Shown piece by piece: positions 1,882 to 57,064 of a stretch of DNA of 64,000 nt. Numbering within the stretch: position 1 is the first letter of the stretch; each line of letters begins with the position of its first letter. Source of the DNA: an uncultured Streptosporangiaceae bacterium (GTDB lineage: Bacteria > Actinomycetota > Actinomycetes > Streptosporangiales > Streptosporangiaceae); contig CAYPQM010000002.1 of the NCBI GenBank assembly GCA_964412845.1, forward strand, positions 14,497-78,496. Direction: 5' to 3'. The position numbers and the translations under genes are program-made. The notes beneath the pieces are model-generated. The model worked only from the letters and a program-made list of their open reading frames with translations, made no database searches and was not told the DNA's origin.

Positions 1882-3273
1882 CTAGCTGGGCTGCTCGGCA
1901 GCTGTCGCGAGCGGCTGGGGTCCGGCCGATGCGCCGGCCCAGACCGGTGCCTCAAGGCTGACCTCGACGGCAGCGCGCGTGGACCAGCCGGTTCGGGCGA
2001 AGGTGCACAGCCCGACCCACTGCAGGACCCAGCCCAGGTACAGCTGCAGGACCGAGGCGACCGGGGCCAGCGCGAACGTGAGCCACTGCGATCCGCGGGG
2101 CAGGTCGGTCCGGACCAGGGACAGGTAGCGCACAGCACCGACGTAGGACAGCAGGACGTACACCGCGGCGAAGCCGGCGGCCGTGTGCCAGTCCTGGCAG
2201 CTGCGCCACAGCACCGCCGGCAGGATCAGCGCCATCCACGCGAACGTGATGAAGTCCCAGGTGACCATCCACCAGGCGATCCGGCGGGCCTGGAAGTTCC
2301 GCAGGAACCAGGCGTTGCCCCACCAGAATGACCGCCACCAGCGCGTCCGCTGCTTGGACAGGTGCCGCAGCGTCACCGGGTGCAGGGTGTAGCCCAGCGC
2401 GCGCCGCTGGAACACGGTGCGCCCGGCCTTGAGCGCGAACTTGGTGAGCATCGCGTCGTCACCGCTGGCGACCTGGCGGCCCGCGACCGTCTGGCCGAGG
2501 TAGAACTCGAGGTTGTCCCGGACGACGCGGCCGCGGTAGAACGCCAAGCCGCCGGCGTTCACCGTGACCGAGCCGAGCCGGGAGTACTGGGCCCGCCCGG
2601 ACAGGAACGAGCAGACGAACCCGAGGTCGACCAGCCGCGTGAGCAGGTTCGCGGTGGTGTTCGCACCGACCAGGAACCCGGCCACGGACATGGTCCGGCG
2701 CCTGGTGAACGGCATCAGCCCGTACTCGATCGCCCCGGGGTCCAGGATGACGTCGGAGTCGACGGTCACGTAGATGTCGGCGGCCGGGTCCATCTCGAAC
2801 GCCCGCGCCTGGGCGTGCCGCTTGCCGCCGTTGTCCTGGCGCACGAAGTCGGCCTCCAGGCCGTCCGGGCACCGGGCACCGTGCCAGGTCTCGAACACCA
2901 GCTGGCAGTCGCGGGTGTCGGATCCGTCGTCGACGACGATGAGCCGGGCCGGGAGCCGGGTCTGCGCGCCCAGGGAGTCGAGCATCCGGGCGAACATCGC
3001 CGGGTCCTCGTTGAACAGCGGCACCACCACCGTGACGTGCAGCGCGGCGAGCTTCGCCGCCGTCGCGCCGGTGGCCGGCACGATCGTGTCGCGGTGGGCT
3101 TGGGCCAGGACGGCCATGAGGACGAGCCAGCAGAACGCCGCGGTGGCGACCGCCGCGGCGTTGCTGGGGTGGCCGGACATCAGGGCGTCGGCGTGCCGTA
3201 GCCCGAGCCAGCCGAGGACGGCGGCCAGGGCGAGCAGGACCAGCGGGTAGCTGCGGCGCGGGCGCACGGTCAC
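1882..3273 (-). CDS. Processive family-2 glycosyltransferase, NodC/HasA (chitin/hyaluronan synthase)-like, multi-TM
   Basis: Motifs VVVPLFNE, VVDDGS, VDSD, SGDDAMLT and KQRTRWWRS (QxxRW), with N- and C-terminal TM segments. GTG start overlaps the upstream stop (GTGA). Confidence 0.9.
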   Translation of the reverse strand: MTVRPRRSYPLVLLALAAVLGWLGLRHADALMSGHPSNAAAVATAAFCWLVLMAVLAQAHRDTIVPATGATAAKLAALHVTVVVPLFNEDPAMFARMLDSLGAQTRLPARLIVVDDGSDTRDCQLVFETWHGARCPDGLEADFVRQDNGGKRHAQARAFEMDPAADIYVTVDSDVILDPGAIEYGLMPFTRRRTMSVAGFLVGANTTANLLTRLVDLGFVCSFLSGRAQYSRLGSVTVNAGGLAFYRGRVVRDNLEFYLGQTVAGRQVASGDDAMLTKFALKAGRTVFQRRALGYTLHPVTLRHLSKQRTRWWRSFWWGNAWFLRNFQARRIAWWMVTWDFITFAWMALILPAVLWRSCQDWHTAAGFAAVYVLLSYVGAVRYLSLVRTDLPRGSQWLTFALAPVASVLQLYLGWVLQWVGLCTFARTGWSTRAAVEVSLEAPVWAGASAGPQPLATAAEQPS

Positions 3274-3425
3274 CGCTGCTTGAGCTTGGCGTGGGCGCGC
3301 ATGCTCAGCGCGCCGATCAGCACGAAGGCGGCGGCCGCGATGGCGAGCCAGGGCACGGTGACGCCGGCGACGGCGACTCCGGCCAGCGCGGCACCGGTGT
3401 GGGCCAGGGTGGGGCGTCCATACAT
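3270..3425 (-). CDS. Small membrane protein (51 aa) translationally coupled to the GT2 gene
   Basis: MYGRPTLAHTGAALAGVAVAGVTVPWLAIAAAAFVLIGALS... with AAAGGA upstream. Its stop overlaps the GT2 GTG start. Confidence 0.6.
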   Translation of the reverse strand: MYGRPTLAHTGAALAGVAVAGVTVPWLAIAAAAFVLIGALSMRAHAKLKQR

Positions 3426-3546
3426 GAGCAGGGGGTCCTTTCGGATTGAGAGGTGGATGGCGGCGACGTGCGCGACGCTGGGGAATGGCCCCCGATCAGC
3501 CGGGGGCCCTCGCGCACGTTCTTCCTGGCTGCCCGGCCGCCCGGTG

Positions 3547-4071
3547 CTACTCCGCCCGGACGTCCGGGTCGGAGAACTGTGCGTACAGGGCGTCGGCACG
3601 CTGCAACGTGCCGGGGAACACCGCGCACACCAGCAGCGCGGCGTCCGGGCCCTGGTCGCGGACGCGGTCCTGCGCGACGTCCTCGGCGGCCAGCGGCGAC
3701 AGCGCCCAGACGTGCTCGCAGTACCGCTGGCCGCCGGTGCGCTGGGTCCACTCCGGGTCGGCCCGGTCGATGACCAGGCCCAGGACGGTCCAGTCGGTGA
3801 CCTCGAGCTCGTTCATGTCCGGCGTGAGGTTCTTGGCGTCCGCGTTGCGGACGTCGCGCGGGTCGACGTACAGCGTGTAGCCGTCGGCGGTCGGGACCTT
3901 GCCCTCCAGGACGCCGGCGACGTGGAAGCGCGCGCCGGCCTCGGCCGCGCTCATTCGAGCCAGGTCCTCGGCGGCGCGCGCCGACGTCGCCGTGTACCGG
4001 TCGCCGAAGCGCTCCTGGTTGTGCGGGAAGTACCCGAAGACGCTGAACTCCCGCTCGTCCAGTCCCGTCAT
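3547..4071 (-). CDS. Hypothetical protein (174 aa)
   Basis: C-terminal part of track ORF 3547..4731, from MTGLDERE. ATGA overlap with the upstream lipoprotein gene. Confidence 0.7.
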   Translation of the reverse strand: MTGLDEREFSVFGYFPHNQERFGDRYTATSARAAEDLARMSAAEAGARFHVAGVLEGKVPTADGYTLYVDPRDVRNADAKNLTPDMNELEVTDWTVLGLVIDRADPEWTQRTGGQRYCEHVWALSPLAAEDVAQDRVRDQGPDAALLVCAVFPGTLQRADALYAQFSDPDVRAE

Positions 4072-4697
4072 CGTCGGCCCCCGCGCAGGGACCCGCCGGA
4101 GATGCCGCCGCTGCTGGTCCGGGAGCCGCTGGTGCCGCCGATGGTCGTCTTGGAACCGCCGGTGGTGCCCGTCCCGGACTTGGAGCCGCCGGTCACGCTG
4201 CCCGAGGTGCCGCCGCGCAGGGATCCGCCGCCCATTGTCCCGACCGAGCCGCTGCCCGAGCCGAACTTCAGCTTGGCCGTCGACGGACCGGTCACCGTCT
4301 TGCCGGTGCTGGTCTTGTAGACCGCGGTCTTGGCCGCTGCGGTGATCTGCTTGGAGTACGTCGTGTGGAACACGGTCTCGGTGTGCACGTAAACGGTCCG
4401 GTGCGCCGGAAGCACGTAGACGTTGTAGTAGGCCGGGCTGTCGTAGTACGCGAAGTACTCCTCCTGCCACGACAGCGGCGCCCGGGTCGGGATCCAGCCG
4501 GCGGGGCAGCGGCCGTCGGCCAGCATCTGCTGGGCCTCGTACGGGTCGTCGAGGTAGTAGCAGCGGCCGACGCCGTTGATGACCTGGCCGGCGGCGACCG
4601 GGACGAGAGTGGGCTGCGACCCGCTGGAGCAGCCACCGAGGGTGACACCGAGGAGGATGGCCAGCGCCAGCAGCAGCGCGCGCAGGGTCTTCTTCAT
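4068..4697 (-). CDS. Lipoprotein with a Gly/Ser/Thr-rich C-terminal tail
   Basis: Signal peptide plus lipobox MKKTLRALLLALAILLGVTLGGC. Start is residue 27 of track ORF 4068..4775. Confidence 0.8.
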   Translation of the reverse strand: MKKTLRALLLALAILLGVTLGGCSSGSQPTLVPVAAGQVINGVGRCYYLDDPYEAQQMLADGRCPAGWIPTRAPLSWQEEYFAYYDSPAYYNVYVLPAHRTVYVHTETVFHTTYSKQITAAAKTAVYKTSTGKTVTGPSTAKLKFGSGSGSVGTMGGGSLRGGTSGSVTGGSKSGTGTTGGSKTTIGGTSGSRTSSGGISGGSLRGGRR

Positions 4698-45705: not shown

Positions 45706-48700
45706 TCAGCGCTTGTAGGCGGTGTACGAGGTGGAGTTGCGGCCGCCGAGCTGAAGCATTTGCGTCTGCATCAGGTTGCGGAGATCGCGTTCGGCCAGGA
45801 CGGAGCCTGCGATGTAGATGTTGTTGACGTAGACCGGCGCGCCCCCGCCCGAGGCGGTTGAGACCATGGGCCCGGCGCCGCCGCCCTTCGAGGCGGCAGC
45901 CAGCATGTCGTTGGACAGGACGAACTCGCCGCCGTGGACGATGGCCAGCTGCGGCGCGCCCTTGGGCCCGGGCACGTAGCCGCCGACGTCGTAGGACGCC
46001 ATGCGCGACTGGCCCTTGCCGTGGCCGACGGTGTTGCCGCCGACTACCACCACGCCGCTCGCGGCGAGCATCTTCTGGATGTCGGTCATACCGGTGACGC
46101 TGACGTTGAGGTTGGTCTGGATGTCCGGCGGGATCAGGCCCAGGGTGTCGATGTACGCCTGGACCTTCTTGCGGGTCGACTCGGAGGTCGAGGAGGTGTT
46201 GACCAGGGCCTGGATTTGGTCCTTCAGCGCCTGGGTGGCCGCCGGGATGCCCATCTTCCCGTTCTTGATGTTGTCGTTGTAGACGTCGACTGCACCTTGA
46301 GCGGCCTGTCGGAGGGCGTCCCGGTTGGCCAGGGCGGCATCGCTGTTCCCGGTCAGCGCACTACCGTTGTCGATCAGGGCCTGCCGGACGTTCTTGAGCT
46401 GCTTCTGGAAGTTGTCCATGGCACCGGACATCTCGAGCCCGGCGGTCATGGTCTGCTGCGCCTGGGTAACGCCGTCGATCGCGCTCGCGGTGTCATCCGC
46501 GGCAGCAGTCGTCTGGCCCAACGCCGCGTCCTGGCCTTGCAGAGCATCGGTGGCGTTCTGGGTGCTGGTGGCGGCGGTTGCCTGCTGGGCGGCCTGGCGG
46601 TCCAGGGCGGCGAAGTACTGTGGGAAGTCTTTCGCGGTGTTGATCAGTGCCTTGCCGTTCTTGTCGGTAGCGGCAGTGATCTGATCCATGATCGACTTTG
46701 CTCGGTCGCCGTTGCCGCTGGCCACGAGGTTTGCCAGGGCGCCGTCGTAGTTCTTCGTCATCGACGCCCCGCCACCCATTTGCTGGCTGAGCTTGCCGAT
46801 TACGATCCCGAACTGCGCCATCGGTTCGGTGTCGGCGCTGACCTTCAACCCCAGGCCGCTCATCAAACGGGTGACTTCGGCTCCCGAGCCGGCGAGCGCG
46901 GTACAGGCGTCGGAGGAGTCCATCAGCGCCACGGTCAGTTGGTCGACGCTGGGCCCCGCCTTGCTCGCTTCCCCCGTCAAATCGTTGAGCCACTTGCCGA
47001 GCCCGATGCCCGCCACTACAACGGCGCCGATGACGGGGAGGGACCGGCCGAGGGTACCCACCAGGCCGCCGATGCCGCTCGCTCCGGCCGCGGTCTCGGC
47101 TGCGGTGGTGCTGGCCACGGTCTCGGCGGTGAAGGTCTTCATACCGATGCCGGCGGCGGCCAGTCGCAGCTTCAGGGCATCGAGCGCTTCTTCCCCGAGC
47201 ACCAGCTTGAGGACGAAGCCAGCGAATGCAACGCTCGTTTCGAGGATGCCGCGGAGCAGGGACACCATCAGCGCGGCCGAGGTCGTCAGGATCTTGGCGG
47301 TGAAAACCGCCAGCTGGGTGCTGCCTTCGACGACCGTCTTGATCAGCGCCGTGGTCATGCTCTTGACCCACATGCCCAGGGCCATCAGCAGGACGCCGCC
47401 GATCACCATGGCGAGGCCTTCGACGACCTTCTTGTGCCGGGCCAACAGGCTCATACCCGACTCGAGCACGGGGATGAGCACGGAGCCGATCTTGATGGCC
47501 GTGGCCGCAACTTCTTGCTTCAGCTGCTCGATCTTGAAGTTGAAGCCCGCGGTGATCGTGCCCCAGTTCTCGATGTCCTTGCCAGCGTGCTGCGACGCCT
47601 CGGAGATCGTCTTGACGTTCTGGGTGTAGGCAGCGAGGTTGATGCCCCCGATCTGCAACGCGGTGTTGGTGTCCATCTGATCGCCGAGCATGTGCCGCAG
47701 CAGCCCGGCGTAGGTCTGGACGTCGGTGCCGCCACCGCGCAGCGCGAGGTTGAAGCTGCTCGCGTTCTTGTAGTTGGTCAGGAATTGCGAACCCATCGCC
47801 TGAAGGTTCGGCGGCATCTCCTTGATCGCGGCGCTGTAGTCCTTCGTGGAGATCGTGCCGCTCACGACCTCCGTCGAGAGGTTCTTCAGGGCGGCCGGCA
47901 TCGACTGGAGCATCGTCTGCAAGCCCTGCGCGGCGTCCTTGGAGCTCGCGAAGGTCTGGACCAGGTACTTCCCGTCCGGACCCATGTGGTTCAAGATCGC
48001 CTGGTTGACGATCTCGAGCGTGCCCGTCAGGCCCCTGCTGCCGAGGTTCTCCTGCAGGTCCGTGCTGGAGACGCCCATCTGGTTCATCCACTTGATCGCG
48101 ATCGCGTTGGGCGTCTGCAGCGAGCTGATCGTGTGGCCGAGCATCTGGGTTGCCTGGTCAGCGGAGGTTCCCTGGCGTGTCATCTCGGACATGGCGCCGA
48201 GCACCTCGGCCAGGCTGATCCCTGCGGCGTGGGCCTGTGGCAGCACGGAGTGCAGGGCCCCGGCGAAAGCCTGCATGCTCGTCTTGCCGAGGGACACGGC
48301 CGCGACGATCTGGTTCATCACCGGGACGGCCGTCTTGCCGGTGGTGTCCCCCATGGCGGTCAGCGCCGTGGTCAGCGCGTTCGCGACCGTCACGACGTCG
48401 GCGCCCTCGGCGCGCGCGCCCTCGGCGGCAACATTCAGGACATTGATGCCCTGGGCACCGTGGTAGCCCGCGGACTCCACGTAGTACATGGCGTCGGCCA
48501 GCTGCTTCGTGGAGGTGGCCGTGGTGACGGCCATCTTCAGCATCTGGTCGGAGACGTCCGCGATCGGGCCGACGAGCCGTCCGTGAACGATGCTGCCGGT
48601 CTCGCCCGCGGACGTGACGAGCTTGGTCATCGACTGCTGCCAGTCGCCGGCCAATTTGACGCTGACGGCCGCAACGCCCACCCCGGCCGCGGCAACCATC

Positions 48701-48846
48701 CCGCCGACCTTGGTCATCGCCGGGCCGAGGCCGCCCATCTTGTTGATGAGCGACTCGCCCTCGACGCCGACCGCCTTGAGCTCGCTCTTCAGCGGCCCGG
48801 ACAGCAGGGTGAGCTTGATGAAGAGATCGGCAACCTCGGCAGCCAC
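45706..48846 (-). CDS. Tape measure protein (1046 aa)
   Basis: Size, position after the G/T chaperones, long Ala/Gly/Gln-rich helical sequence and central hydrophobic segments. Confidence 0.9.
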   Translation of the reverse strand: MAAEVADLFIKLTLLSGPLKSELKAVGVEGESLINKMGGLGPAMTKVGGMVAAAGVGVAAVSVKLAGDWQQSMTKLVTSAGETGSIVHGRLVGPIADVSDQMLKMAVTTATSTKQLADAMYYVESAGYHGAQGINVLNVAAEGARAEGADVVTVANALTTALTAMGDTTGKTAVPVMNQIVAAVSLGKTSMQAFAGALHSVLPQAHAAGISLAEVLGAMSEMTRQGTSADQATQMLGHTISSLQTPNAIAIKWMNQMGVSSTDLQENLGSRGLTGTLEIVNQAILNHMGPDGKYLVQTFASSKDAAQGLQTMLQSMPAALKNLSTEVVSGTISTKDYSAAIKEMPPNLQAMGSQFLTNYKNASSFNLALRGGGTDVQTYAGLLRHMLGDQMDTNTALQIGGINLAAYTQNVKTISEASQHAGKDIENWGTITAGFNFKIEQLKQEVAATAIKIGSVLIPVLESGMSLLARHKKVVEGLAMVIGGVLLMALGMWVKSMTTALIKTVVEGSTQLAVFTAKILTTSAALMVSLLRGILETSVAFAGFVLKLVLGEEALDALKLRLAAAGIGMKTFTAETVASTTAAETAAGASGIGGLVGTLGRSLPVIGAVVVAGIGLGKWLNDLTGEASKAGPSVDQLTVALMDSSDACTALAGSGAEVTRLMSGLGLKVSADTEPMAQFGIVIGKLSQQMGGGASMTKNYDGALANLVASGNGDRAKSIMDQITAATDKNGKALINTAKDFPQYFAALDRQAAQQATAATSTQNATDALQGQDAALGQTTAAADDTASAIDGVTQAQQTMTAGLEMSGAMDNFQKQLKNVRQALIDNGSALTGNSDAALANRDALRQAAQGAVDVYNDNIKNGKMGIPAATQALKDQIQALVNTSSTSESTRKKVQAYIDTLGLIPPDIQTNLNVSVTGMTDIQKMLAASGVVVVGGNTVGHGKGQSRMASYDVGGYVPGPKGAPQLAIVHGGEFVLSNDMLAAASKGGGAGPMVSTASGGGAPVYVNNIYIAGSVLAERDLRNLMQTQMLQLGGRNSTSYTAYKR

Positions 48847-48900: not shown

Positions 48901-49368
48901 TCAGATGAGCGTTTTCCAGCCGGCGCCGAAGTTCTTGGCGTAGATCAGCGAGGCCGGGACGCCCATGGCGAAGCGGAAGGCCGGCTGGAGGAAGGGATAC
49001 TTAGCGCCGTTGACCAGGCCGGCGACTTCCAGGTAGTAGCCGTACTTGTTGGCCGGCGTCTTCGAGCCGTACGACGAGGGGAAGCCGACAGCGGTCCCGA
49101 CCAGGATCTCCAGGGTGTCGCCGACCGTGCGTACCGCGGTGTGGGTGATCGCGCGTCGCAGGTTGCCGGAGATGACTGCCGGGCCTTCGCCGGGCAGCGC
49201 TGGGGTCCGGGTACCGACCTTGTGGGCCCCGTTGCTGGCGTTGATCTTTGCCTGCTTCTCGATCGTCAGCGCCAGCTCTGTCAGGGTCTTGGCGGACTTT
49301 CTGCGGGTTTCGGCTGCGATCTCGGTGCAGAGCTTCGTGAACACACCCGGCGTGAGTTCGGTGGCCAA
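48901..49368 (-). CDS. HK97 gp10-like head-tail/tail component (155 aa)
   Basis: ...GPAVISGNLRRAITHTAV... resembles the tG.Lr.SI motif of gp10-family proteins. Family not verified. Confidence 0.55.
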   Translation of the reverse strand: MATELTPGVFTKLCTEIAAETRRKSAKTLTELALTIEKQAKINASNGAHKVGTRTPALPGEGPAVISGNLRRAITHTAVRTVGDTLEILVGTAVGFPSSYGSKTPANKYGYYLEVAGLVNGAKYPFLQPAFRFAMGVPASLIYAKNFGAGWKTLI

Positions 49369-49369
49369 G

Positions 49370-49552
49370 TCACCACCTCACTTCGGTCGCTCCTGGCTTC
49401 TGCTGGGCGCTGCGGTGAGCACGTTCCGCGGCGGCGTTGTTCGCGCGGCGCCCCTCCATGAGGAAGATCCAGCAGACTTGCCGCACGTAGTGCGGAGTGG
49501 CTTGATACTCGTCCCAGGTCCAGCGCATCTCACGCATGAGCTCGAACATCAC
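49370..49552 (-). CDS. Tail assembly chaperone T-frame segment, probably made as a G-T fusion by -1 frameshifting
   Basis: By hand translation, the -1 frame relative to G is open from about 49700 through 49370. Confidence 0.55.
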   Translation of the reverse strand: MMFELMREMRWTWDEYQATPHYVRQVCWIFLMEGRRANNAAAERAHRSAQQKPGATEVRW

Positions 49553-49611
49553 CCACTCCTCCGGGGCAGCCCCGGATGCCCACGTCCCGTCGAGAATGCT
49601 CTCGACGTCGG

Positions 49612-49998
49612 TCAGGACGCTGGCGAATCCGGGGTCGTCGAAGGGGAGCCGTTCGCCCCCTTGTTCATCTCCTCGGCGATGCGGGTCTGGACGATCTGCG
49701 CGAACTTCGAGACCGTCTCAGCGGTCGCGGGCAGGTCGAGCAGCGGCTGCTCCTCGGCCCTCACACTGGAGTCGTACATCCGCATGTCGACGACGAGGTT
49801 GGCGATGCGCTCGTAGGACTCCCACAGGGCGGCCTTCGGGTTGAGCGGCTGGCCGTTGCTGTCCGTGGCGATGTCGGACACGAGTTCGTCCAGCGGCACG
49901 AGCAACGGGTTGCGGATCTTGACGTAGAGATCGGGCTCGCCGTCTTCAGTCAGTTCGGGGAACGTGATCGTGATGAAGCGCCCCTTGAGTCCCGCCAT
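49612..49998 (-). CDS. Tail assembly chaperone G (128 aa)
   Basis: Position between the major tail and tape measure genes. Acidic. Confidence 0.7.
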   Translation of the reverse strand: MAGLKGRFITITFPELTEDGEPDLYVKIRNPLLVPLDELVSDIATDSNGQPLNPKAALWESYERIANLVVDMRMYDSSVRAEEQPLLDLPATAETVSKFAQIVQTRIAEEMNKGANGSPSTTPDSPAS

Positions 49999-50032: not shown

Positions 50033-51226
50033 TCAGTAGGCTGTTGAGACGAAGTTGGTGACGGTCGCTGCGAAGGCGCCGCCGTCGGTGGCGTTGTAGA
50101 TGCCGTCGATGTCGAAGGACGCCGTGACGTAGATGTCGTCCCAGGAGACCTGGCCCTTGTTCCAGCCCGACTTGGTCGACGTCATGGTGATCACCGAGCC
50201 GCCGAGGACGACTGGCTGGGTGAGGACGGCCGTGCACGGCTGCTGGAGGTACTGCAGGTACAGGTTGAGGTCGGCGTCCGACTCGAAGAGCGCCTTGTAC
50301 GAGCCGCTGAAGTCGAAGACGCCCTGGAAGGTCTCCCGGGGCTGCTGGACGCCGTCGGAGCTGTGGATCGCCTCGACCGGCCGCTTGAGGGTCATGTCGT
50401 AAGACAGGCCGCGGGTGCTTGAGGCTCCCCCGTTGGTCATCGTCCACTGCCAGCCCAGGGCGGGCTGCACGGGCGAGAAGCTCGGCCCGACCTGGTCGGC
50501 GACCTCGGCAGACAGCCAGCCGGTGAACTTCGCCGAGGCGGTCACCATGGCCTTGGGGTCGATCTTGATGCCGAGCTCGCTGCACTTGCAGCCGGGGAAG
50601 CCGCGCGAGTGCGACGGTAGGCCGTTGGCGACCACGTCGTACTTCGTGAAGCTCCAGCTGGTCTGCGCGGCCGCGGGGTTCTGCTTGAAGCTGTGCGTCG
50701 ACTGGGAGATCACCGAGCCGCCGGCTGCGGTATGTGCGTAGCGGGTGCCGGTCGAGGGCGTGGTGACGTTCGCGGTGTAGGGCCCGGAGCCGGAGACGGT
50801 CCCGATCTGGACGTACTCCAGGTTCGCGCCGCCGGTGTCGGAGATCTGGATGATCGCGTTGTTGCCGGGGTTGGCTGTGAAAGACAGCGGCGATCCGCCG
50901 AGGCCTCCGCCGACGACGCAGTCCGCGGTGAGGGTGGTGGTCACGCCGGCTGTGGTGACGGTGTCCGGCCCGATGATGGCGCGGAACAGGTACGGGAGCG
51001 CGTCCGCGTACGCCGCCATCTCGAAGTCGAACGAGCTCTGACCGGGCCCCTGGTAGAGGCCCTGGAGCCCGGTGTCGTTGTTCCGGAAGCTCTCGTCGCG
51101 CAGCGGGTCGTAGACGTCGACCGCATCGCACTTGGTCACGGCGAAGTCGAACCCCGGGGCCAGGTAGCTGCCCTGCGCGCTCTCCTTCCGGCCGCCGATG
51201 TATCCGAGCCGAGAAACAGAGCTCAT
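50033..51226 (-). CDS. Major tail (tube) protein candidate (397 aa)
   Basis: Position directly upstream of the chaperones. Beta-rich, Thr/Gly/Ser-rich. Confidence 0.7.
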   Translation of the reverse strand: MSSVSRLGYIGGRKESAQGSYLAPGFDFAVTKCDAVDVYDPLRDESFRNNDTGLQGLYQGPGQSSFDFEMAAYADALPYLFRAIIGPDTVTTAGVTTTLTADCVVGGGLGGSPLSFTANPGNNAIIQISDTGGANLEYVQIGTVSGSGPYTANVTTPSTGTRYAHTAAGGSVISQSTHSFKQNPAAAQTSWSFTKYDVVANGLPSHSRGFPGCKCSELGIKIDPKAMVTASAKFTGWLSAEVADQVGPSFSPVQPALGWQWTMTNGGASSTRGLSYDMTLKRPVEAIHSSDGVQQPRETFQGVFDFSGSYKALFESDADLNLYLQYLQQPCTAVLTQPVVLGGSVITMTSTKSGWNKGQVSWDDIYVTASFDIDGIYNATDGGAFAATVTNFVSTAY

Positions 51227-51510
51227 GCCGACTCACCTCCGGGTTCGATGGCCGGCTGAGCGGCGGGCTTCTTGGTCTTGGTGGCGGGGGCCTGGTCGGC
51301 GCTCGCCGCGGGGGCGGCCGGCGGTTCGGGCGCGTCGGCCGGTTCGGGTTCCGGCTCGGGGTCGGGCTCGAGCGATGTGAAGCCGGCCAGGAGCTTGGGC
51401 TGGTCGGTCTCTTCGCCGGGGCCGACGGTGAACGGCCGCCCGTCGGGGTTGTCTTTGGTGGGCCACAGCGAGACGTGCTGCGGGTAGCCCGAGGTGTTGC
51501 GCTGGCGCAC
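51223..51510 (-). CDS. Hypothetical protein with a Pro/Glu/Ala-rich C-terminus (95 aa, GTG start)
   Basis: Track ORF. ATGA overlap with the major tail gene. Confidence 0.5.
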   Translation of the reverse strand: MRQRNTSGYPQHVSLWPTKDNPDGRPFTVGPGEETDQPKLLAGFTSLEPDPEPEPEPADAPEPPAAPAASADQAPATKTKKPAAQPAIEPGGESA

Positions 51511-51586: not shown

Positions 51587-52066
51587 TCAGCCGGTGAACT
51601 CGAGGTCGTCGGCCTCGTAGGTGATCCGCGCCTCGAACGCGCAGGTCGTCATGGACTGCGGGGCGGACAGGAACTGCACGTCGATGGCGGTCGGGTTCTC
51701 GGCGACGGACAGGAACGTGCCGTGGGTCTTGTCGCCGATCGGGCCGCCGATGCGGGCGATGACGTCGTCGATGGCCTGATCGAAGGCCGCCTGGTCGCTC
51801 TCGGCGTTGCCGGAAGCAGCAGAGAGGGTCCAGCCGCAGATCAGCTCGAAGCCGTAGTGCGGCATCCGGCGCACGTTCGCGGACCGCGTGACCCGCACGG
51901 CGCGCCGCAGGACCCAGATCTGGTTCTGCCGGGTCGCCGGGGTTCGGGGCGCGTAGGCCTGGACGATGTCCCACCGGCCGCCATTGATCTTCAGCAGTGC
52001 TGGGAGCCCGTCGCCTGAGGTGGTGAGCCACGCGGTTTCGCGGGCGACAGCGTCGGCGGTGGACAC
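51587..52066 (-). CDS. Structural protein of the head-tail joining region (159 aa)
   Basis: Track ORF, called on position. Confidence 0.6.
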   Translation of the reverse strand: MSTADAVARETAWLTTSGDGLPALLKINGGRWDIVQAYAPRTPATRQNQIWVLRRAVRVTRSANVRRMPHYGFELICGWTLSAASGNAESDQAAFDQAIDDVIARIGGPIGDKTHGTFLSVAENPTAIDVQFLSAPQSMTTCAFEARITYEADDLEFTG

Positions 52067-52073
52067 GGGTCGG

Positions 52074-52634
52074 TCACCTCCGCCGTCGTCTGCGTGAGCT
52101 GTGGCGGGTCGATCTGCGGTGGTGGCCGGCGGAGTGCCGGGCGGCGCGGTGGGAGTGCGCGCGGGCGGCCGACATCTTCGCCCTGCGGGCGGCCTTCTCG
52201 GCCGGGGTCATGGCGGCCAGGTGCGCGCGGAGCGAAGCCGTACGCTTCGCGCTTCGGGCGGCCTTCTCAGCCGGGGTGAGCTTGGCGTTCGCCGCCTTGA
52301 GGGCCTTGGAGAGCTTGGCCGTGCGCGCCGCGCGCTGCTCGGCGGTGAGCTTCGCGTTCGCGGCCCTCATCGCCGCCGACTGCTTGGCCGCGCGCGCGGC
52401 CTTCTGGGCCGGGGTGAGTTTCGCCAGGGCGGCCTTGCGTTTGGCGGCCATCGCCGCCTTGCGCGCGGCGCGCTGCGCCGGCGTCATCGCGGCCAGCTTC
52501 TTCTTCATCGCCGCGACGCGCTTGGCGGTCTCGGCCTTCTTCTGCGCCGCAGTGAGGTGGTTCCAGCGCGCCTTCATCCTGGCGGCGAGTGCGGCCCGGG
52601 CCTTGGGCGAGAGGTGGTGCTTTGCCTTGGCCAT
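52074..52634 (-). CDS. Extremely basic Ala/Lys/Arg-rich protein with six tandem 23-aa repeats and a poly-Arg tail
   Basis: Repeat unit (L/M)T(P/A)(A/E)(Q/E)(K/R)AAR.AK...A.....A(K/A), six copies (52143..52556). C-terminus is HHRRSTRHSSRRRRRR. Confidence 0.8.
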   Translation of the reverse strand: MAKAKHHLSPKARAALAARMKARWNHLTAAQKKAETAKRVAAMKKKLAAMTPAQRAARKAAMAAKRKAALAKLTPAQKAARAAKQSAAMRAANAKLTAEQRAARTAKLSKALKAANAKLTPAEKAARSAKRTASLRAHLAAMTPAEKAARRAKMSAARAHSHRAARHSAGHHRRSTRHSSRRRRRR

Positions 52635-52637
52635 TGG

Positions 52638-53294
52638 CTACTCGCGCATGTAGGGCACGAGCATGCTCTGTGCCTTGATCCGCAGCACGTCAGGGTCGTG
52701 GCCGTGGTCGCCGAGCGGATCGAGCTCGTCGATCACGTAGGCGGCGCCCAGATACTTGCAGGCGCGGACCAGGTCGGCCGGGACCGTGCTGTAGCCGCCG
52801 GAGTAGGTGACGTGCACCCGGGAGCCGACGGGCAGGAACAGGCCGAGCTGGAACCAGACGTGCCCGGAGTCCGGGTCCGGGCCGTCGAGCAGGGTCGTCA
52901 CGGTCTGGGTGCCGCCGTAGGAGCGGACGATGCTGATCGAGATGTTCGAGTACGTCCAGTACTCGGGGTGCCGCGGGGCGAACTCGTTCAGCCAGATCTG
53001 CCGCACCTGATCGCTGGAGTTGAGCGAGGCGGCGTAGGACTGGCCGATCGCGCCCTTGATGTCCAGCGGGAGATTCGCCGAGTCGCTGAGCTCGTCGGGA
53101 TCGATGCCCTCAGCGCGGTGCGACTCGGTGATGGTGAACGGGGCCAAACGCCGAGAGCACATGCCCTCCAGCTCCCGGGTGGCCTCGATCAGCGCCTGGT
53201 CGATCGCGTCCGTGGAGTAGTTGCGGACGAGGTCGGCGAAGGCGCCGTTCTCGAGCTGGGCGCGGGTGGCGAGGGGAATCGGAGAGTCTGACAC
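52638..53294 (-). CDS. Head-tail connector/adaptor candidate (218 aa)
   Basis: Position downstream of the capsid genes. Confidence 0.55.
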   Translation of the reverse strand: MSDSPIPLATRAQLENGAFADLVRNYSTDAIDQALIEATRELEGMCSRRLAPFTITESHRAEGIDPDELSDSANLPLDIKGAIGQSYAASLNSSDQVRQIWLNEFAPRHPEYWTYSNISISIVRSYGGTQTVTTLLDGPDPDSGHVWFQLGLFLPVGSRVHVTYSGGYSTVPADLVRACKYLGAAYVIDELDPLGDHGHDPDVLRIKAQSMLVPYMRE

Positions 53295-53322: not shown

Positions 53323-53730
53323 CTACTTGCCCTTGCCTCGTGGCTTGGGGGCTTCGACGACCGGGTCGGCCGGCGCGATCTCGGACAGCTCGGGTTCGGT
53401 GGGCGGTTCGTCCGGCTCGGGCTTCGATTCAGCCGCCGGCTCGGGCTCGGGTTCGGCGGCAAGCTCGGGCTCGGGCTCGGGTTCGGCCGTCGGCTCTACG
53501 GCGGCCTCGTCGGTCGCCGCAGGCAGCGGCTCATCGGTCGCACCTTCGTCCTCTGGGTCGTCGTCCGGCTCGTAGATGACTGTGAAGCCCTCCGCGGAGC
53601 CGAGTTCGGCCAGAACGTAGTCGGGGACCTGGATCGCGGCGCCGTCGGTGGGCCACGAGTAGAGCCAGGGGCCGTTGGGTCCGTAGCCGGCGGCGCTGCC
53701 CGCGCGGGTCTTGGCCAGAAGTGCGGCCAT
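53323..53730 (-). CDS. Hypothetical protein with an acidic Pro/Glu-rich C-terminal half (135 aa)
   Basis: MAALLAKTRAGS..., the C-terminal part of track ORF 53323..55275. Directly follows the capsid gene. Confidence 0.6.
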   Translation of the reverse strand: MAALLAKTRAGSAAGYGPNGPWLYSWPTDGAAIQVPDYVLAELGSAEGFTVIYEPDDDPEDEGATDEPLPAATDEAAVEPTAEPEPEPELAAEPEPEPAAESKPEPDEPPTEPELSEIAPADPVVEAPKPRGKGK

Positions 53731-53795
53731 GCGTATCACTCCAGGGGACGGGCGGAGCCCGGGTGGTCCGGGCTCCGCCAGATGGGTGTCTGGGC

Positions 53796-55160
53796 TCAGA
53801 CCGCGACGGCAACGCGGGACAGGCGTCCGGTGTACTTCGGGGCGCGGACGGCCAGGGTGGTGTCCGACACCAGCGCGTAGGGCAGCGAGTCCGGCGACGC
53901 GGTCGTCGGGTAGACGTCGATCGGCTGGAGCTCGCGGACCCAGGGGCGGACCACGAAGTTCCGGTCCCGGGAGATCAGGTAGATGTTCTCCAGGCCGCGG
54001 CCCACCGGGTACATGCCGGTGTTCGTCCCGTAGTACTGCGTCGGCAGCGTGCCCGGGGCGGTGGCGCCGTTCATCGGCACCAGCGCAGTGCCGGTGTCGA
54101 CGATTGAGGTGGTCAGGATCGGGGTGACGCCGTCGGCGCCCAGGCCCACGGTGGCGTCGACGTAGCCGAGGAAGGTCTCGGCGCCGGCGGCGGTGGAGCG
54201 GTAGACCTTGAGCAGGGTCGGCTGGGCCCCGTCCAGGCCGCTCGGCGTGGAGAAGCTCAGGGTGACGGTCGAGGTGGAGCCGGTGGTGGTCTGGCTGACC
54301 TCGGCCGAGGCGATGACCTCGCCCTGGCGGGCGATGACCGCGCCGAGCCGGTACCAGTAGGTGTTCGCCGCCAGGGTGCCGCCGGTGCCGGCGGTGGCCG
54401 TGGTGACGGAGCCGACGTTGTAGTTGCGGGCGGACAGCATCGAGCTCTTGATCAGGGGGATGTCGCGGTAGGTCGGGACGATCAGACCCGCGGCGACCTC
54501 GACGCGGTCGGCGAAACGCTGCTGGTTCTGTAGCAGCTGCGCGATCTTGCTGATCGCGGTGTTCGACATGACCATCATCCAGGTGTCGTCGAACACGTTC
54601 ATGGCCGCGTTGGTCTCGACCATGTCGATCAGCTCGTCCAGCATCGCCAGCGTCAGCGTGTTGCCGGTCTGGTCGATCGCGTTCTGCGCGCCGCCGGAGT
54701 AGGTCGAGACCTGGGTGTCCAGGCCGTCGAACTGCGGCGCCGCACCGGTGACGGTGGAGGCGGAGTTGCCCCACAGGATGCCGGCCTCGGTGTCCCAGGT
54801 CAGGCCCCGGATGGCGCCCTCGATTTCGGTGGTGCGCAGGTTCTGGATGACCTGCTTGGTGACCTGCTGGGCGTAGCCGGTGACGGCGCCGACCACCTGG
54901 AGGTGCTTGATCTGGAAGCTGTTCTGCACGTAGGTGCTGGTGCTGACCGGGCGCGCGCCGCCGTCGGGGACGAATCCGCCGCTGGCGACCTGGTTTCGGT
55001 TGTTCCAGTAGTACGTGTCGGAGTCCCACTTCTGGCTCGGCAGCGAGCGCACCAGCGGGGAGTAGCGCCGCTGGTACTCCAGCAGCATCGGGTCGATGAT
55101 CTTCGGGACGAGTGCGGATGCACCGGCCGCGGTCAGAGCCTCGCGGAGCTCGGAGGTCAT
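53796..55160 (-). CDS. Major capsid protein (454 aa)
   Basis: Position after the scaffold/protease gene, with size and composition typical of HK97-fold capsid proteins. Confidence 0.8.
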   Translation of the reverse strand: MTSELREALTAAGASALVPKIIDPMLLEYQRRYSPLVRSLPSQKWDSDTYYWNNRNQVASGGFVPDGGARPVSTSTYVQNSFQIKHLQVVGAVTGYAQQVTKQVIQNLRTTEIEGAIRGLTWDTEAGILWGNSASTVTGAAPQFDGLDTQVSTYSGGAQNAIDQTGNTLTLAMLDELIDMVETNAAMNVFDDTWMMVMSNTAISKIAQLLQNQQRFADRVEVAAGLIVPTYRDIPLIKSSMLSARNYNVGSVTTATAGTGGTLAANTYWYRLGAVIARQGEVIASAEVSQTTTGSTSTVTLSFSTPSGLDGAQPTLLKVYRSTAAGAETFLGYVDATVGLGADGVTPILTTSIVDTGTALVPMNGATAPGTLPTQYYGTNTGMYPVGRGLENIYLISRDRNFVVRPWVRELQPIDVYPTTASPDSLPYALVSDTTLAVRAPKYTGRLSRVAVAV

Positions 55161-55336: not shown

Positions 55337-57064
55337 TCAGCGCGGGAGGGCGCGGTTGCCCATCACGTACTGGTCCAGCTGCGGACCGAAGTAGGCCTGG
55401 CGCTCCTCGGCCGTGTACTTGTGCAGCGGCTTCTGCGGCCAGCTCTCCGGCAGCGCGTCGCCGTTGTCGGCCTCCTCGAGGTCCTGGGCGGCGCCGCTGA
55501 CCAGGCCCTTGCGGCCGGGGCCACGGCCGGACTCGACGATGTCCTGGATCATGCGTGTCCGCTCGGTGGCCAGGCGCTCCTCGACGATCCGGGCGATGCG
55601 CTGGTCGTCGGTCTCGGTGACCTGCGCGGCCGGGGCCGGGGCGGCCTCGGTGGCCGCGGGCGCCGCGGCGGCGGGGGCCGCCGGGGCTGCGGCGGCCGGC
55701 GCGGTGCGGGCCAGGAGCGCCTCGAACTGCTCGGCGGTCAGGGTGATCGGGGCGGCCGCGGCCGGGGCTGCCTCGGCAGCCGGGGCGGTCTCGACCGCCG
55801 TGGTGGTGGGCTCGGTCACGACCGGCTCCTCCGTTTCGGTGTGGGGGTCGGCGGCCGGGTCGGGCGCCGCGGTGGTGGTTTCGGGGGCGGCGTGCTCGCC
55901 GGAGTCCGGGGTTCCCTCGGCCGGGTCTTCGGCTTCGGCCAGCTCGGGACCGTCGGGGGTGCTCTCCAGCCGCTCGGCAGCGGTCTCGCCCATGGAGCCA
56001 TCGGTGTCCTCCGCGTCGGCGCCGGGGACGTCCATGTCGCCGTCCATGTCCGGGTCGATGGCGGTCAGGCAGGCCACGGCGCCAGCCATCGCGGCCTTGC
56101 CGATCAGGTCGAGGTCAGCGGGGTCGACGCAGTAGGAGGAGACGGAGATGTTGATCGGACCGTTGGACAGCGAGATGCAGAAGCTGCCGCGCTCGCGGTC
56201 GTCCAGGTAGTGCTCGGCGAGCTGCTCGGTCTCGGTGACGACGCCGATGCGGTCGATGAGCCAGCCCTCGTCGGTGGAGATCTCCACGCCGAAGCGCTTC
56301 AGCGCCGACTTGATCCGCTGCTTGATCCGCTTGAGCTGCGGGCCGGTGTAGGGCTTGGCGTTGTCGGCCTGGTGGATGTACGACCAGGCGGCCTTGGCCT
56401 GGGCCTTGGTGTCCAGGGCGTAGCGCTTGGCCTTGTCCGGCTGGTAGCCGGGGTCGGCGTACGTCGACGCCTTGGTCTGCGGCGCCGCGGCGGCGCCGGA
56501 CTTCAGGGGCGCGGCAGCCTCCTGGATCTGCGAGGTCACCAGTGCCTCCTGGACGGATTCGTAGATCAGGGCCCGGCCGTCAGATTCGGCGAGGCGCTTG
56601 ACGTTGTCGATGACGGCGCCGGCGACGCCGGGCTTCCGTGTGAAGTCCAGACCGTCGAGTTCGAGGTCGTCGGCGGTCTCGACGGGCTGGCCGTCGTGCA
56701 GCTCTTGGCGCGGCTGGCCCATCCAGGCGCCGCGGATCGAGGTGTTCCGCAGGAACGGGTCTCCGCCGTCAGTGTCGATCAGGCCGGCGATGGTGTGGCC
56801 GTGCGTGGTGTCTGCGATGTCCGCGCTGAAGCGCGCGGAGCCGTCCTCGGCCAACGTCATGCCGGTGAGCCGGCCGACGATGTGGGTGGAGTCGTCCTCG
56901 GCCGCGTGGTGGGTGAGCATCGTCATCGGCGCGGAGCCGTCGGCGATGCGGGCCTGGGCCCGGGCAACGGCCTTGGCGATGGCCTCGCGGGTGTAGAGCC
57001 GGCCGTTGCGGCTGACGCCGGGGACCAGCGCGGTGCCGGTGATGGTCGCGATGCGCTTAGCCAC
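55337..57064 (-). CDS. Scaffolding/prohead-protease-like protein (575 aa) with an Ala/Pro-rich low-complexity segment
   Basis: N-terminus ITGTALVPGVSRNGRLYTREAI... Position between the MuF region and the capsid gene. Protease catalytic residues not verified. Confidence 0.6.
   Translation of the reverse strand: MAKRIATITGTALVPGVSRNGRLYTREAIAKAVARAQARIADGSAPMTMLTHHAAEDDSTHIVGRLTGMTLAEDGSARFSADIADTTHGHTIAGLIDTDGGDPFLRNTSIRGAWMGQPRQELHDGQPVETADDLELDGLDFTRKPGVAGAVIDNVKRLAESDGRALIYESVQEALVTSQIQEAAAPLKSGAAAAPQTKASTYADPGYQPDKAKRYALDTKAQAKAAWSYIHQADNAKPYTGPQLKRIKQRIKSALKRFGVEISTDEGWLIDRIGVVTETEQLAEHYLDDRERGSFCISLSNGPINISVSSYCVDPADLDLIGKAAMAGAVACLTAIDPDMDGDMDVPGADAEDTDGSMGETAAERLESTPDGPELAEAEDPAEGTPDSGEHAAPETTTAAPDPAADPHTETEEPVVTEPTTTAVETAPAAEAAPAAAAPITLTAEQFEALLARTAPAAAAPAAPAAAAPAATEAAPAPAAQVTETDDQRIARIVEERLATERTRMIQDIVESGRGPGRKGLVSGAAQDLEEADNGDALPESWPQKPLHKYTAEERQAYFGPQLDQYVMGNRALPR

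Follow-up and report, generated by a model that had tools for sequence, protein, structure and literature searches.

The window analysed here is a 64,000-nucleotide stretch of DNA from an uncultured Streptosporangiaceae bacterium (C2:14497-78496, where C2 is a 95-kb contig of a 359-contig, 6.9-Mb assembly). Within a block of phage head and tail genes it contains a gene for an extremely basic protein with six tandem 23-residue units, referred to below as the repeat protein. The gene is real and is under purifying selection. It lies in a slot, the position between the gene of the head-tail adaptor and the gene of a tail-terminator-fold protein, and in related phages this slot mostly holds an accessory, very basic protein with variable repeat type and number. 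DNA binding by the repeat protein is strongly suggested, and nucleic-acid binding is the most reasonable activity for it. It is somewhat probable that the protein is a nuclease-free tandem array of groove-binding helices, made late as an accessory product of the neck operon of uncultured Streptomycetaceae phages and possibly residing on phage DNA at the neck.

Repeat units and their relation to STPR and NUMOD3

The gene is present in a single copy across the 6.9-Mb assembly. The G+C content of its codon positions 1, 2 and 3 is 0.65, 0.64 and 0.93, respectively, and a third-position value (GC3) of 0.93 in sequence of ~70% G+C indicates a true coding frame. The product contains 62 Ala (33%), 28 Arg, 25 Lys, 10 His, 4 Glu and no Asp residues and has a net charge of +49 (53 Lys and Arg, 4 Glu, 0 Asp) and an isoelectric point of ~12, in line with the extreme basicity and dominance of Ala, Lys and Arg pointed out in the preliminary description of the window. 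The six exact 23-residue units listed in that description, the partial unit in front of them and the C-terminal tail HHRRSTRHSSRRRRRR were all found in the translation. An N-terminal leader, one NUMOD3-like unit, six STPR-like units and the Arg-rich tail (Table 1) fill all 186 amino acids, and no nuclease family was detected in the protein with Pfam, PHROGs or NCBIfam. The scans with PHROGs and with the NCBIfam library gave no match at all. The repeat protein and its orthologues are absent from two collections of 5.8 billion and 1.84 billion proteins, though the contigs encoding them are public; gene callers or databases may overlook genes of this kind, which look like low-complexity sequence.

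The six units begin at residues 27, 50, 73, 96, 119 and 142, i.e. with a spacing of exactly 23. Their consensus is [ML]-T-[AP]-A-Q-[KR]-A-A-R-x-A-K-[MRL]-[ST]-A-x-[MIL]-[KR]-x-x-[LN]-A-x, with Pro confined to position 3. Self-identity of the protein is 0.41 both at lag 23 and at lag 46. The 67 identities at lag 23 can be compared with the best lag of 5000 shuffled sequences, for which the mean is 37 and the maximum is 50. The underlying DNA shows no more than a degenerate repeat of 69 nt (2.4 copies, 69% identity). A weak DNA repeat behind a strong protein repeat means that the periodicity is held at the protein level and does not result from a recent DNA duplication.

In the AlphaFold model of the repeat protein helices span residues 29-49, 52-71, 75-94, 98-117, 121-141 and 144-172. 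The first five are 20-21 residues long and are separated by linkers of 2-3 residues, and the sixth extends into the tail. The predicted local distance difference test score (pLDDT) is 86 overall and ~92 in the repeat helices. The low predicted template modelling score (pTM) of 0.38 indicates that there is no fixed tertiary packing, which is expected if the chain is ordered only on DNA. For a chain of this kind it is also expected that a Foldseek search with the model gives no match in PDB and no significant match in BFVD, as was the case.

STPRs (PF21107; gathering threshold 27 bits) is the top Pfam family for the repeat protein and the sole match of note there, with 17.7 bits (E=0.0048) for the window protein and 16.3 and 25.8 bits (E=1.5e-5) for its orthologues in the related contigs L002 and L023. 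A sequence search of PDB with phmmer gives the STPR domain of silkworm FMBP-1 (5d23) as the best match of the L023 orthologue (E=7.8e-6). The family profile matches 5d23 with E=1e-5; this alignment spans 92 residues and thereby exactly four in-register repeats. For the window protein alone 5d23 is still the best match (E=0.071). Since both proteins are Ala/Arg-rich and 23-periodic, the register was tested explicitly by a summed column score of 30 phage units against the four units of BmSTPR. The score in register is 26.2 versus -2.2 +/- 5.5 for the other 22 cyclic shifts (z=5.2), and it was attained by 0 of 100,000 column permutations. Positions common to the phage units and BmSTPR are T2, P3, Q5, R/K6, A7, A8, R9, K/R12, M13, S14, A15, L21 and A22.

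In the crystal structures of BmSTPR with DNA a unit consists of a 2-residue linker and a 21-residue helix, and successive helices follow the major groove in a zig-zag at 4 bp per helix (PMC4856987). Arg6 and Arg9 bind phosphates, Met13, Ser14 and Ala17 pack on thymine methyls, and the conserved residues are Thr/Ser2, Arg9 and Glu1, the latter in a salt bridge with Arg9 (PMC4856987). The full set of DNA contacts comprises Arg6, Arg9, Met13, Ser14, Tyr16, Ala17, Arg20 and Leu21; BmSTPR prefers AT-rich DNA, and STPR proteins have been reported only from animals and one moss. In the 30 phage units position 2 is Thr in 27 and Ser in 3, and position 9 is Arg in 24. Contact positions 6 (Lys/Arg), 9 (Arg), 13 (Met/Arg/Leu), 14 (Ser/Thr) and 21 (Leu/Asn) are kept or conservatively replaced, and positions 16 (Ala/Ser), 17 (Met/Ile/Leu/Arg) and 20 (Ala/His/Lys/Ser) are altered.

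The array shares with the STPR of FMBP-1 strict 23-residue tandem units (usually 3-7 in STPR, 7-9 in the orthologues found here), a 2-residue linker followed by a helix of ~21 residues with a Thr2...Gln5 N-cap (as predicted here by AlphaFold), and the succession of basic residues at positions 6, 9 and 12, then Met13-Ser14-Ala15, then Leu21-Ala22. It differs from it by the lack of the Glu1-Arg9 salt bridge, by a far higher content of Ala, Lys and Arg, by a domain make-up limited to six units, a preceding NUMOD3-like unit and a poly-Arg tail, and by its origin from a phage of a high-G+C actinobacterium. The similarity seen fits homology with animal STPR and convergence alike.

A likeness to nucleoid proteins of the H1 or HU-tail type with AKKA/PAKK repeats had been proposed from the composition. 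This proposal is not borne out: no histone-like Pfam family was found at E<=10, and the units resemble STPR instead. Like H1, HU tails and Hc1, the repeat protein is rich in Ala and Lys, is very basic and likely binds DNA electrostatically; unlike them it consists of capped 23-residue helices with position-specific conservation and has no short PAKK or AKKA repeats.

The second family to which the array is related is NUMOD3, the minor-groove helix of I-TevI, I-HmuI and I-BmoI (PMC3664794), of which I-BmoI is predicted to carry three repeats. The first units of the STPR-like proteins (one in the window protein, the first two or three in the orthologues) are only 17-19 residues long and resemble the NUMOD3 units of other slot proteins. 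In hhalign the N-terminal region of the STPR-like family aligns with slot NUMOD3 units with a probability of 76% (E=2.3e-5), and the first unit of the L023 orthologue, equivalent to the LSPKARAALAARMKARWNH unit of the window protein, scores as NUMOD3 with E=0.0056. Slot NUMOD3 units, the phage 23-residue units (at positions 11-18) and BmSTPR all contain the core A-K-[IML]-S-A-x-[LM]-[KR]. Within single phage proteins a gradation is seen from NUMOD3 units of 17 residues to STPR-like units of 23 residues. The NUMOD3 family in Pfam (PF07460) has a gathering threshold of 20.4 bits; slot proteins of L003 and L007 reach 44.7 and 48.1 bits, 7 of the 20 related records exceed the threshold, and the matches that were checked fall in the slot gene. 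Two things link the window protein to NUMOD3: NUMOD3 units align with its first unit and with the core of its longer units, and its syntenic orthologues are true NUMOD3 arrays. It is unlike NUMOD3 in having units of 23 and not ~17 residues and more of them than the three predicted for I-BmoI, and unlike NUMOD3 homing endonucleases it lacks a nuclease, a zinc finger and a helix-turn-helix.

When 1.84 billion representative proteins were searched with the family profile, only 22 matches were obtained at E<=1e-3, which are weak or remote and include no orthologue. They carry TP[AE]Q[KR]AA arrays with a period of 19-23 residues. One of them, P0018, is a genuine animal STPR protein. Another one, P0016, looks like an exported protein of LTxxQ type, and this means that the capping motif alone is not diagnostic. 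In several others the array is fused to enzymatic or DNA-binding regions (Table 1), and such partners, being DNA-acting enzymes, support DNA binding by the array. The arrays of P0001, P0004-P0007, P0010 and P0020 score just below the Pfam STPR cut-off. Judged by their sequences, these seven look like an uncurated prokaryotic family of DNA-binding repeats bridging NUMOD3 and STPR.

The slot between adaptor and tail terminator

The position of the gene in the head-tail block, as given in the preliminary description, is correct; its neighbours, named there as a connector candidate and tail genes, can now be specified as the adaptor gene upstream and the gene of the tail-terminator-fold protein downstream, all on the minus strand. 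A gap of 3 nt separates the TAG stop codon of the adaptor gene from the ATG of the repeat gene, and one of 7 nt separates the stop codon of the latter from the GTG of the terminator-fold gene. No promoter-like or terminator-like sites were found within ~1 kb on either side of the repeat gene. Such short gaps and the lack of its own promoter or terminator indicate that the gene is most probably expressed within the neck operon. Its last codons, CGG CGG AGG TGA, hold a GGAGG Shine-Dalgarno sequence for the terminator-fold gene, with the GTG 9 nt downstream (window positions 52074-52094). In the window and in the related contigs L023 and L030 the junction TAG-CCA-ATG (52632-52640) is in frame, and a readthrough fusing the adaptor to the array was considered. 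It was rejected as a conserved mechanism, as the two genes are in different frames in L002 and in every relative of NUMOD3 type.

The adaptor has 20 relatives in IMG/VR contigs, and two more come from named genomes of Streptomycetaceae, namely Streptantibioticus silvisoli and Streptacidiphilus sp. A related prophage of Streptacidiphilus sp. MAP5-3 (L032) has a slot protein of NUMOD3 type. One of the relatives is a complete genome of 102.9 kb with direct terminal repeats, and two others are ~100 kb long. Judging by these sizes, contig C2 may be most of a phage genome and not an integrated prophage. GenBank phages gave no match to the 9-kb block (megablast) or to the repeat protein or the adaptor (tblastn), and the capsid protein matches only distant phages of Leptospira and Bacillus there. 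A pattern search of the named-genome contigs with the family alignment gave no match, and 300 other genomes of the family of the host gave no match at E<=1e-6.

The content of the slot in the relatives is given in Table 1. Slot proteins have a net charge per residue of +0.26 to +0.44, and nearly all of them, whatever the repeat type, end in four to six Arg residues. A nuclease domain is present in 0 of the ~17 slot proteins examined, all of which consist of repeats and a tail with a total length of 105-281 amino acids. Three relatives (L031, L011 and L012) have no gene of this kind, which makes it accessory. Reverse-strand open reading frames (ORFs) are found in the slot region of L013, L015, L016 and L017 as well, and in L011 and L012 a reverse-strand gene occupies it instead. 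They are of two types, one of ~107-170 amino acids with 'MHITGY.GDEPRDRV...' and another of ~212-320 amino acids. These frames look like moron insertions, and the site appears to be a hot spot for accessory genes.

In comparison with the closest orthologue, that of L002, whose adaptor is 84% identical, the synonymous divergence (dS) is 0.65 and the ratio of nonsynonymous to synonymous divergence (dN/dS) is 0.27. The lengths of the two proteins differ by one 17-residue unit, one 23-residue unit and segments of the tail. A comparison of repeat number among related phages, suggested in the preliminary description, hence reveals differences by whole units. Lack of conservation of the frame, which was named there as a reason to abandon the prediction, is contradicted by its preservation in at least four other contigs and by the dN/dS value. 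The slot gene is retained even where the adaptors of the relatives have no more than 50-60% identity.

A link of the array to the neck is provided by P0002, a protein of 409 amino acids from an unrelated metagenomic siphophage (contig L033, positions 2867-4096, plus strand). Its N-terminal domain matches phrog_387 'neck protein' (E=5e-4) and is followed by a Gly-rich linker and a TPAQKAAR array. The order of genes on its contig is: adaptor (phrog_442, as in the window), head closure Hc1, an ORF of 74 amino acids, P0002, tail terminator, major tail protein, chaperones and tape measure. The array is therefore encoded directly upstream of the tail terminator in two different phages, as a free protein in the window and fused to a neck protein in P0002. 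This fusion and the gene order are the only evidence tying the array to the virion, and they should be regarded as suggestive.

Possible mode of action and alternative explanations

We infer DNA binding itself, the groove used, the footprint and specificity of the array, its site of action, its association with the virion or neck and its role in protection of the DNA end. The array probably acts in the same way as STPR, with helices zig-zagging along a DNA groove and ~4 bp per helix. On DNA each unit would form a ~21-residue helix with Thr2 and Gln5 as its N-cap. This helix would sit in the groove with Lys/Arg6, Arg9 and Lys12 touching the phosphates and with the patch Met13-Ser14-Ala15 turned to the groove floor, and successive helices would follow the duplex in a zig-zag. 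At 4 bp per helix, as in BmSTPR, the footprint would be ~24-28 bp per molecule, and the charge of +49 would neutralise roughly this footprint (~50 phosphates). At the positions of Tyr16 and Arg20 of STPR the phage units have Ala, Ser, His or Lys, and G+C makes up 70% of the phage DNA, so that binding is probably only weakly sequence-specific.

The repeat gene would be co-transcribed and translationally coupled with the neck genes, and its product may attach to the DNA of the phage itself over a limited length, at the portal or neck; an example of such a site is the end that is packaged last and ejected first. There it would hold or shield the end of the DNA, and it may leave together with this end on infection. 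A role in DNA condensation, which was among the initial suggestions, appears unlikely by stoichiometry: the charge of +49 would neutralise only ~25 bp of a ~100-kb genome, which makes general condensation implausible, and local binding fits better.

Phage T4 gp2 is a DNA end-protection protein made with head-completion genes; proteins of its type bind DNA ends, are packaged and protect against host nucleases of the exonuclease V type. Together with other DNA-associated pilot proteins it can serve as a functional analogy, since the repeat protein is basic and encoded among head-completion and neck genes, and is proposed here to occupy the DNA end at the junction of head and tail and to enter with it. 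The two proteins have no relationship in sequence or fold and no family match, and gp2 is not a repeat protein. Another functional analogy is given by TALE and BurrH proteins, in which tandem helical repeats track a DNA groove, the length of the array sets the footprint and the number of whole units varies. TALE units differ from the phage ones: they are two-helix hairpins of 33-35 residues that read 1 bp each via a variable di-residue, and no comparable hypervariable specificity positions are seen in the phage units.

Several observations weigh against a groove-binding array located at the neck. The window protein, the L002 protein and the L023 protein all miss the gathering threshold of STPRs, and the window protein has no PF07460 match even at E<=10. 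Glu1 is one of the three residues called defining by the authors of the STPR structures; position 1 of the 30 phage units is Met in 19 and Leu in 11 and is never Glu. Tyr16 and Arg20, which touch DNA in BmSTPR, are lost. Because of the differences at Glu1, Tyr16 and Arg20 the repeat is called here STPR-like and is not filed as a member of the Pfam family. A part of the similarity is the generic helix N-cap (LTxxQ), which occurs also in the apparently exported P0016. STPR occupies the major groove and NUMOD3 the minor one, and the binding mode cannot be read from the similarity. The gene is dispensable for the lineage (L031, L011, L012), which argues against an essential structural role. The assignment of the neck domain in P0002 relies on a weak match and on gene order, and the repeat protein itself resembles no virion protein, be it in PHROGs or by structure. 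Finally, the conserved poly-Arg end may be partly constrained by the overlapping ribosome-binding site of the next gene.

A protein with the same DNA-binding architecture could also be a late intracellular effector that is not packaged and coats or reorganises host or phage DNA, for example to shut off host transcription, to act against a silencer or a DNA-targeting defence or to help present concatemers to the terminase. The accessory character of the gene and its fast-changing repeat type and number are often met in counter-defence and host-takeover genes, the repeat protein resembles no virion protein, and the AT-rich DNA preferred by BmSTPR is a rare sequence of regulatory type in a host of 70% G+C. 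We consider such an effector unlikely, as the gene is tightly coupled in the neck operon and has no promoter of its own, host-takeover effectors are usually products of early genes, and in P0002 of an unrelated phage the array is joined to a structural neck protein. It is quite unlikely that the gene is what remains, domesticated or in decay, of a homing endonuclease, i.e. a DNA-binding array with little or no function for the phage, left over from a free-standing HNH or GIY-YIG gene that had inserted between two conserved neck genes. Decay is at variance with the dN/dS of 0.27 at dS 0.65, with the expansion of the arrays to 6-9 units versus the three predicted in I-BmoI, with the poly-Arg C-terminus common across repeat types and with the persistence of the gene across adaptors only 50-60% identical, and none of the ~17 slot proteins has a nuclease domain. 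What speaks for such an origin is that NUMOD3 is a homing-endonuclease module, that arrays of this type form the non-catalytic part of the GIY-YIG and HNH proteins P0004, P0005, P0006, P0010 and P0020, and that the slot is variable, being in some relatives empty or occupied by unrelated reverse-strand genes.

The repeat protein may also have no functional nucleic-acid binding and be an assembly chaperone, an electrostatic partner of acidic proteins or of the portal-adaptor channel, or a flexible neck spacer, the 'ruler' mentioned in the preliminary description. Two neighbouring ORFs (53323..53739 and 51223..51510) are indeed strongly acidic, slot proteins share only the extreme basicity and mostly the poly-Arg end and no particular repeat, and the number of repeats changes by whole units as it does in rulers. 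For simple charge pairing, though, conservation of the STPR contact face (R6, R9, K12, M13, S14) is needless, the fusion partners elsewhere are DNA enzymes, and the gene is absent from relatives with the same adaptor and terminator, so the geometry of the neck is independent of it; this explanation is highly improbable. The notion of a conventional tail-completion protein is not supported either, given the absence of a PHROG match. That the reading frame is no gene and is merely an Ala/Arg-rich frame kept open by the high G+C content is barely conceivable. Several overlapping frames are open here on both strands, and the protein and its orthologues are missing from both large collections; yet the GC3 of 0.93, the conserved frame with dN/dS of 0.27 and indels of whole units, the operon-like spacing to both neighbours with a GGAGG site for the next gene, and the high AlphaFold confidence all point to a gene.

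The groove-binding array at the neck can be extended to a more general proposal, which we regard as doubtful. The slot proteins would constitute a class of neck-associated groove-tracking proteins that sit in the portal-neck channel, retain or shield the last-packaged end and enter the host as a pilot or end protector, and STPR would be a descendant or sibling of NUMOD3. The literature searched, with incomplete coverage, contains no STPR-like arrays in phages or prokaryotic enzymes and no nuclease-free NUMOD3- or STPR-like arrays as a recurrent gene of the neck module. With close look-alikes of STPR in phages and in nucleases, recombinases and methylases of prokaryotes, a repeat known from animals and moss gains a wider range, and the intermediate units within single proteins tie STPR to NUMOD3 and make the origin of the domain testable. 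If the proposal is true, the 'animal-only' STPR domain is a descendant or sibling of a homing-endonuclease module. The basic-protein slot between adaptor and terminator together with the fusion to a neck protein may point to an undescribed accessory component acting on the DNA of the head-tail junction, and such a component bears on the question of how the end of a phage genome is held and protected. Arrays with a footprint scaling by the number of units could serve as simple DNA-binding scaffolds; if the proposal holds, they would be natural, length-tunable scaffolds of low specificity.

Neighbouring genes and minor observations

The features of the window are collected in Table 1 together with the proteins carrying related arrays and with the content of the slot in related contigs. 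The protein encoded at 55337..57064 may be, as its sequence suggests, a protease-scaffold fusion. Two strongly acidic ORFs flank the basic repeat gene, each one gene away from it. The protein downstream of the repeat gene has no match in PHROGs, Pfam or NCBIfam by sequence, and its assignment comes from the AlphaFold model (mean pLDDT 80.5, pTM 0.78), which a Foldseek search aligns with tail terminators, among them lambda gpU and T5 p142, with E from 7e-5 to 1e-3 and template modelling (TM) scores of 0.4-0.59. The gene of this protein is kept downstream of the slot in all relatives examined.

Table 1. Features of the window, proteins with related arrays and content of the slot in related phages (P, proteins from the profile search; L, related contigs).
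Feature	Location	Strand	Remarks
Repeat-protein gene	52074..52634	minus	186 amino acids, ATG start, TGA stop; ORF and translation
NUMOD3-like first unit	52557..52613	minus	residues 8-26, shorter than the following units; hhalign of family N-terminal region
Six tandem 23-residue STPR-like units	52143..52556	minus	residues 27-164; exact spacing
Tail	52077..52142	minus	residues 165-186, protamine-like His/Ser/Arg, ends RRRRRR; sequence
Protease/scaffold (putative)	55337..57064	minus	575 amino acids; N-terminus like phrog_207 head maturation protease, DUF6582, long Ala/Pro/Glu-rich C-terminal half
Major capsid protein	53796..55160	minus	Pfam/PHROG scans
Acidic Pro/Glu-rich ORF	53323..53739	minus	138 amino acids, 32 Asp+Glu, 24 Pro
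Head-tail adaptor	52638..53294	minus	218 amino acids; phrog_442, E=6.7e-7; upstream of repeat gene
Tail-terminator-fold protein	51587..52066	minus	159 amino acids; downstream of repeat gene; AlphaFold and Foldseek
Acidic Pro-rich ORF	51223..51510	minus	95 amino acids, 15 Asp+Glu, 19 Pro
Tail tube	50033..51226	minus	
Chaperone-like ORFs and Neck1/tail-completion-like ORF	48901..49998	minus	
Tape measure	45706..48846	minus	by size and position
Array fused to GIY-YIG	P0004, P0005		
Array fused to HNH/AHH	P0006, P0010, P0020		read from motifs; in Pfam only sub-threshold AHH for P0006
Array fused to serine-recombinase zinc ribbon	P0001		
Array fused to DNA methylase-like region	P0007		below Pfam cut-off
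Slot: STPR-like arrays	L002/L028, L023, L029, L030		245-281 amino acids
Slot: NUMOD3 arrays	L003, L004, L005, L006, L007, L008, L010, L032		
Slot: other extremely basic proteins	L009, L016, L017, L018		
Slot: unrelated gene	L011, L012	reverse	
Slot: empty	L031		adaptor stop and next start 2 nt apart

The sites revealed by a scan for AT-rich targets are only scattered, and a repeated motif lies outside the window; no link of these to the repeat protein was found. The motif (ACTTCTAACTATACAACA...CTAGCTATGCAACA) is present in three copies at G000:C2:9493-11180, i.e. 3.3-5 kb before the start of the window, in a contig otherwise of 70% G+C. It is possible that these copies represent operators or promoters of the phage early region.

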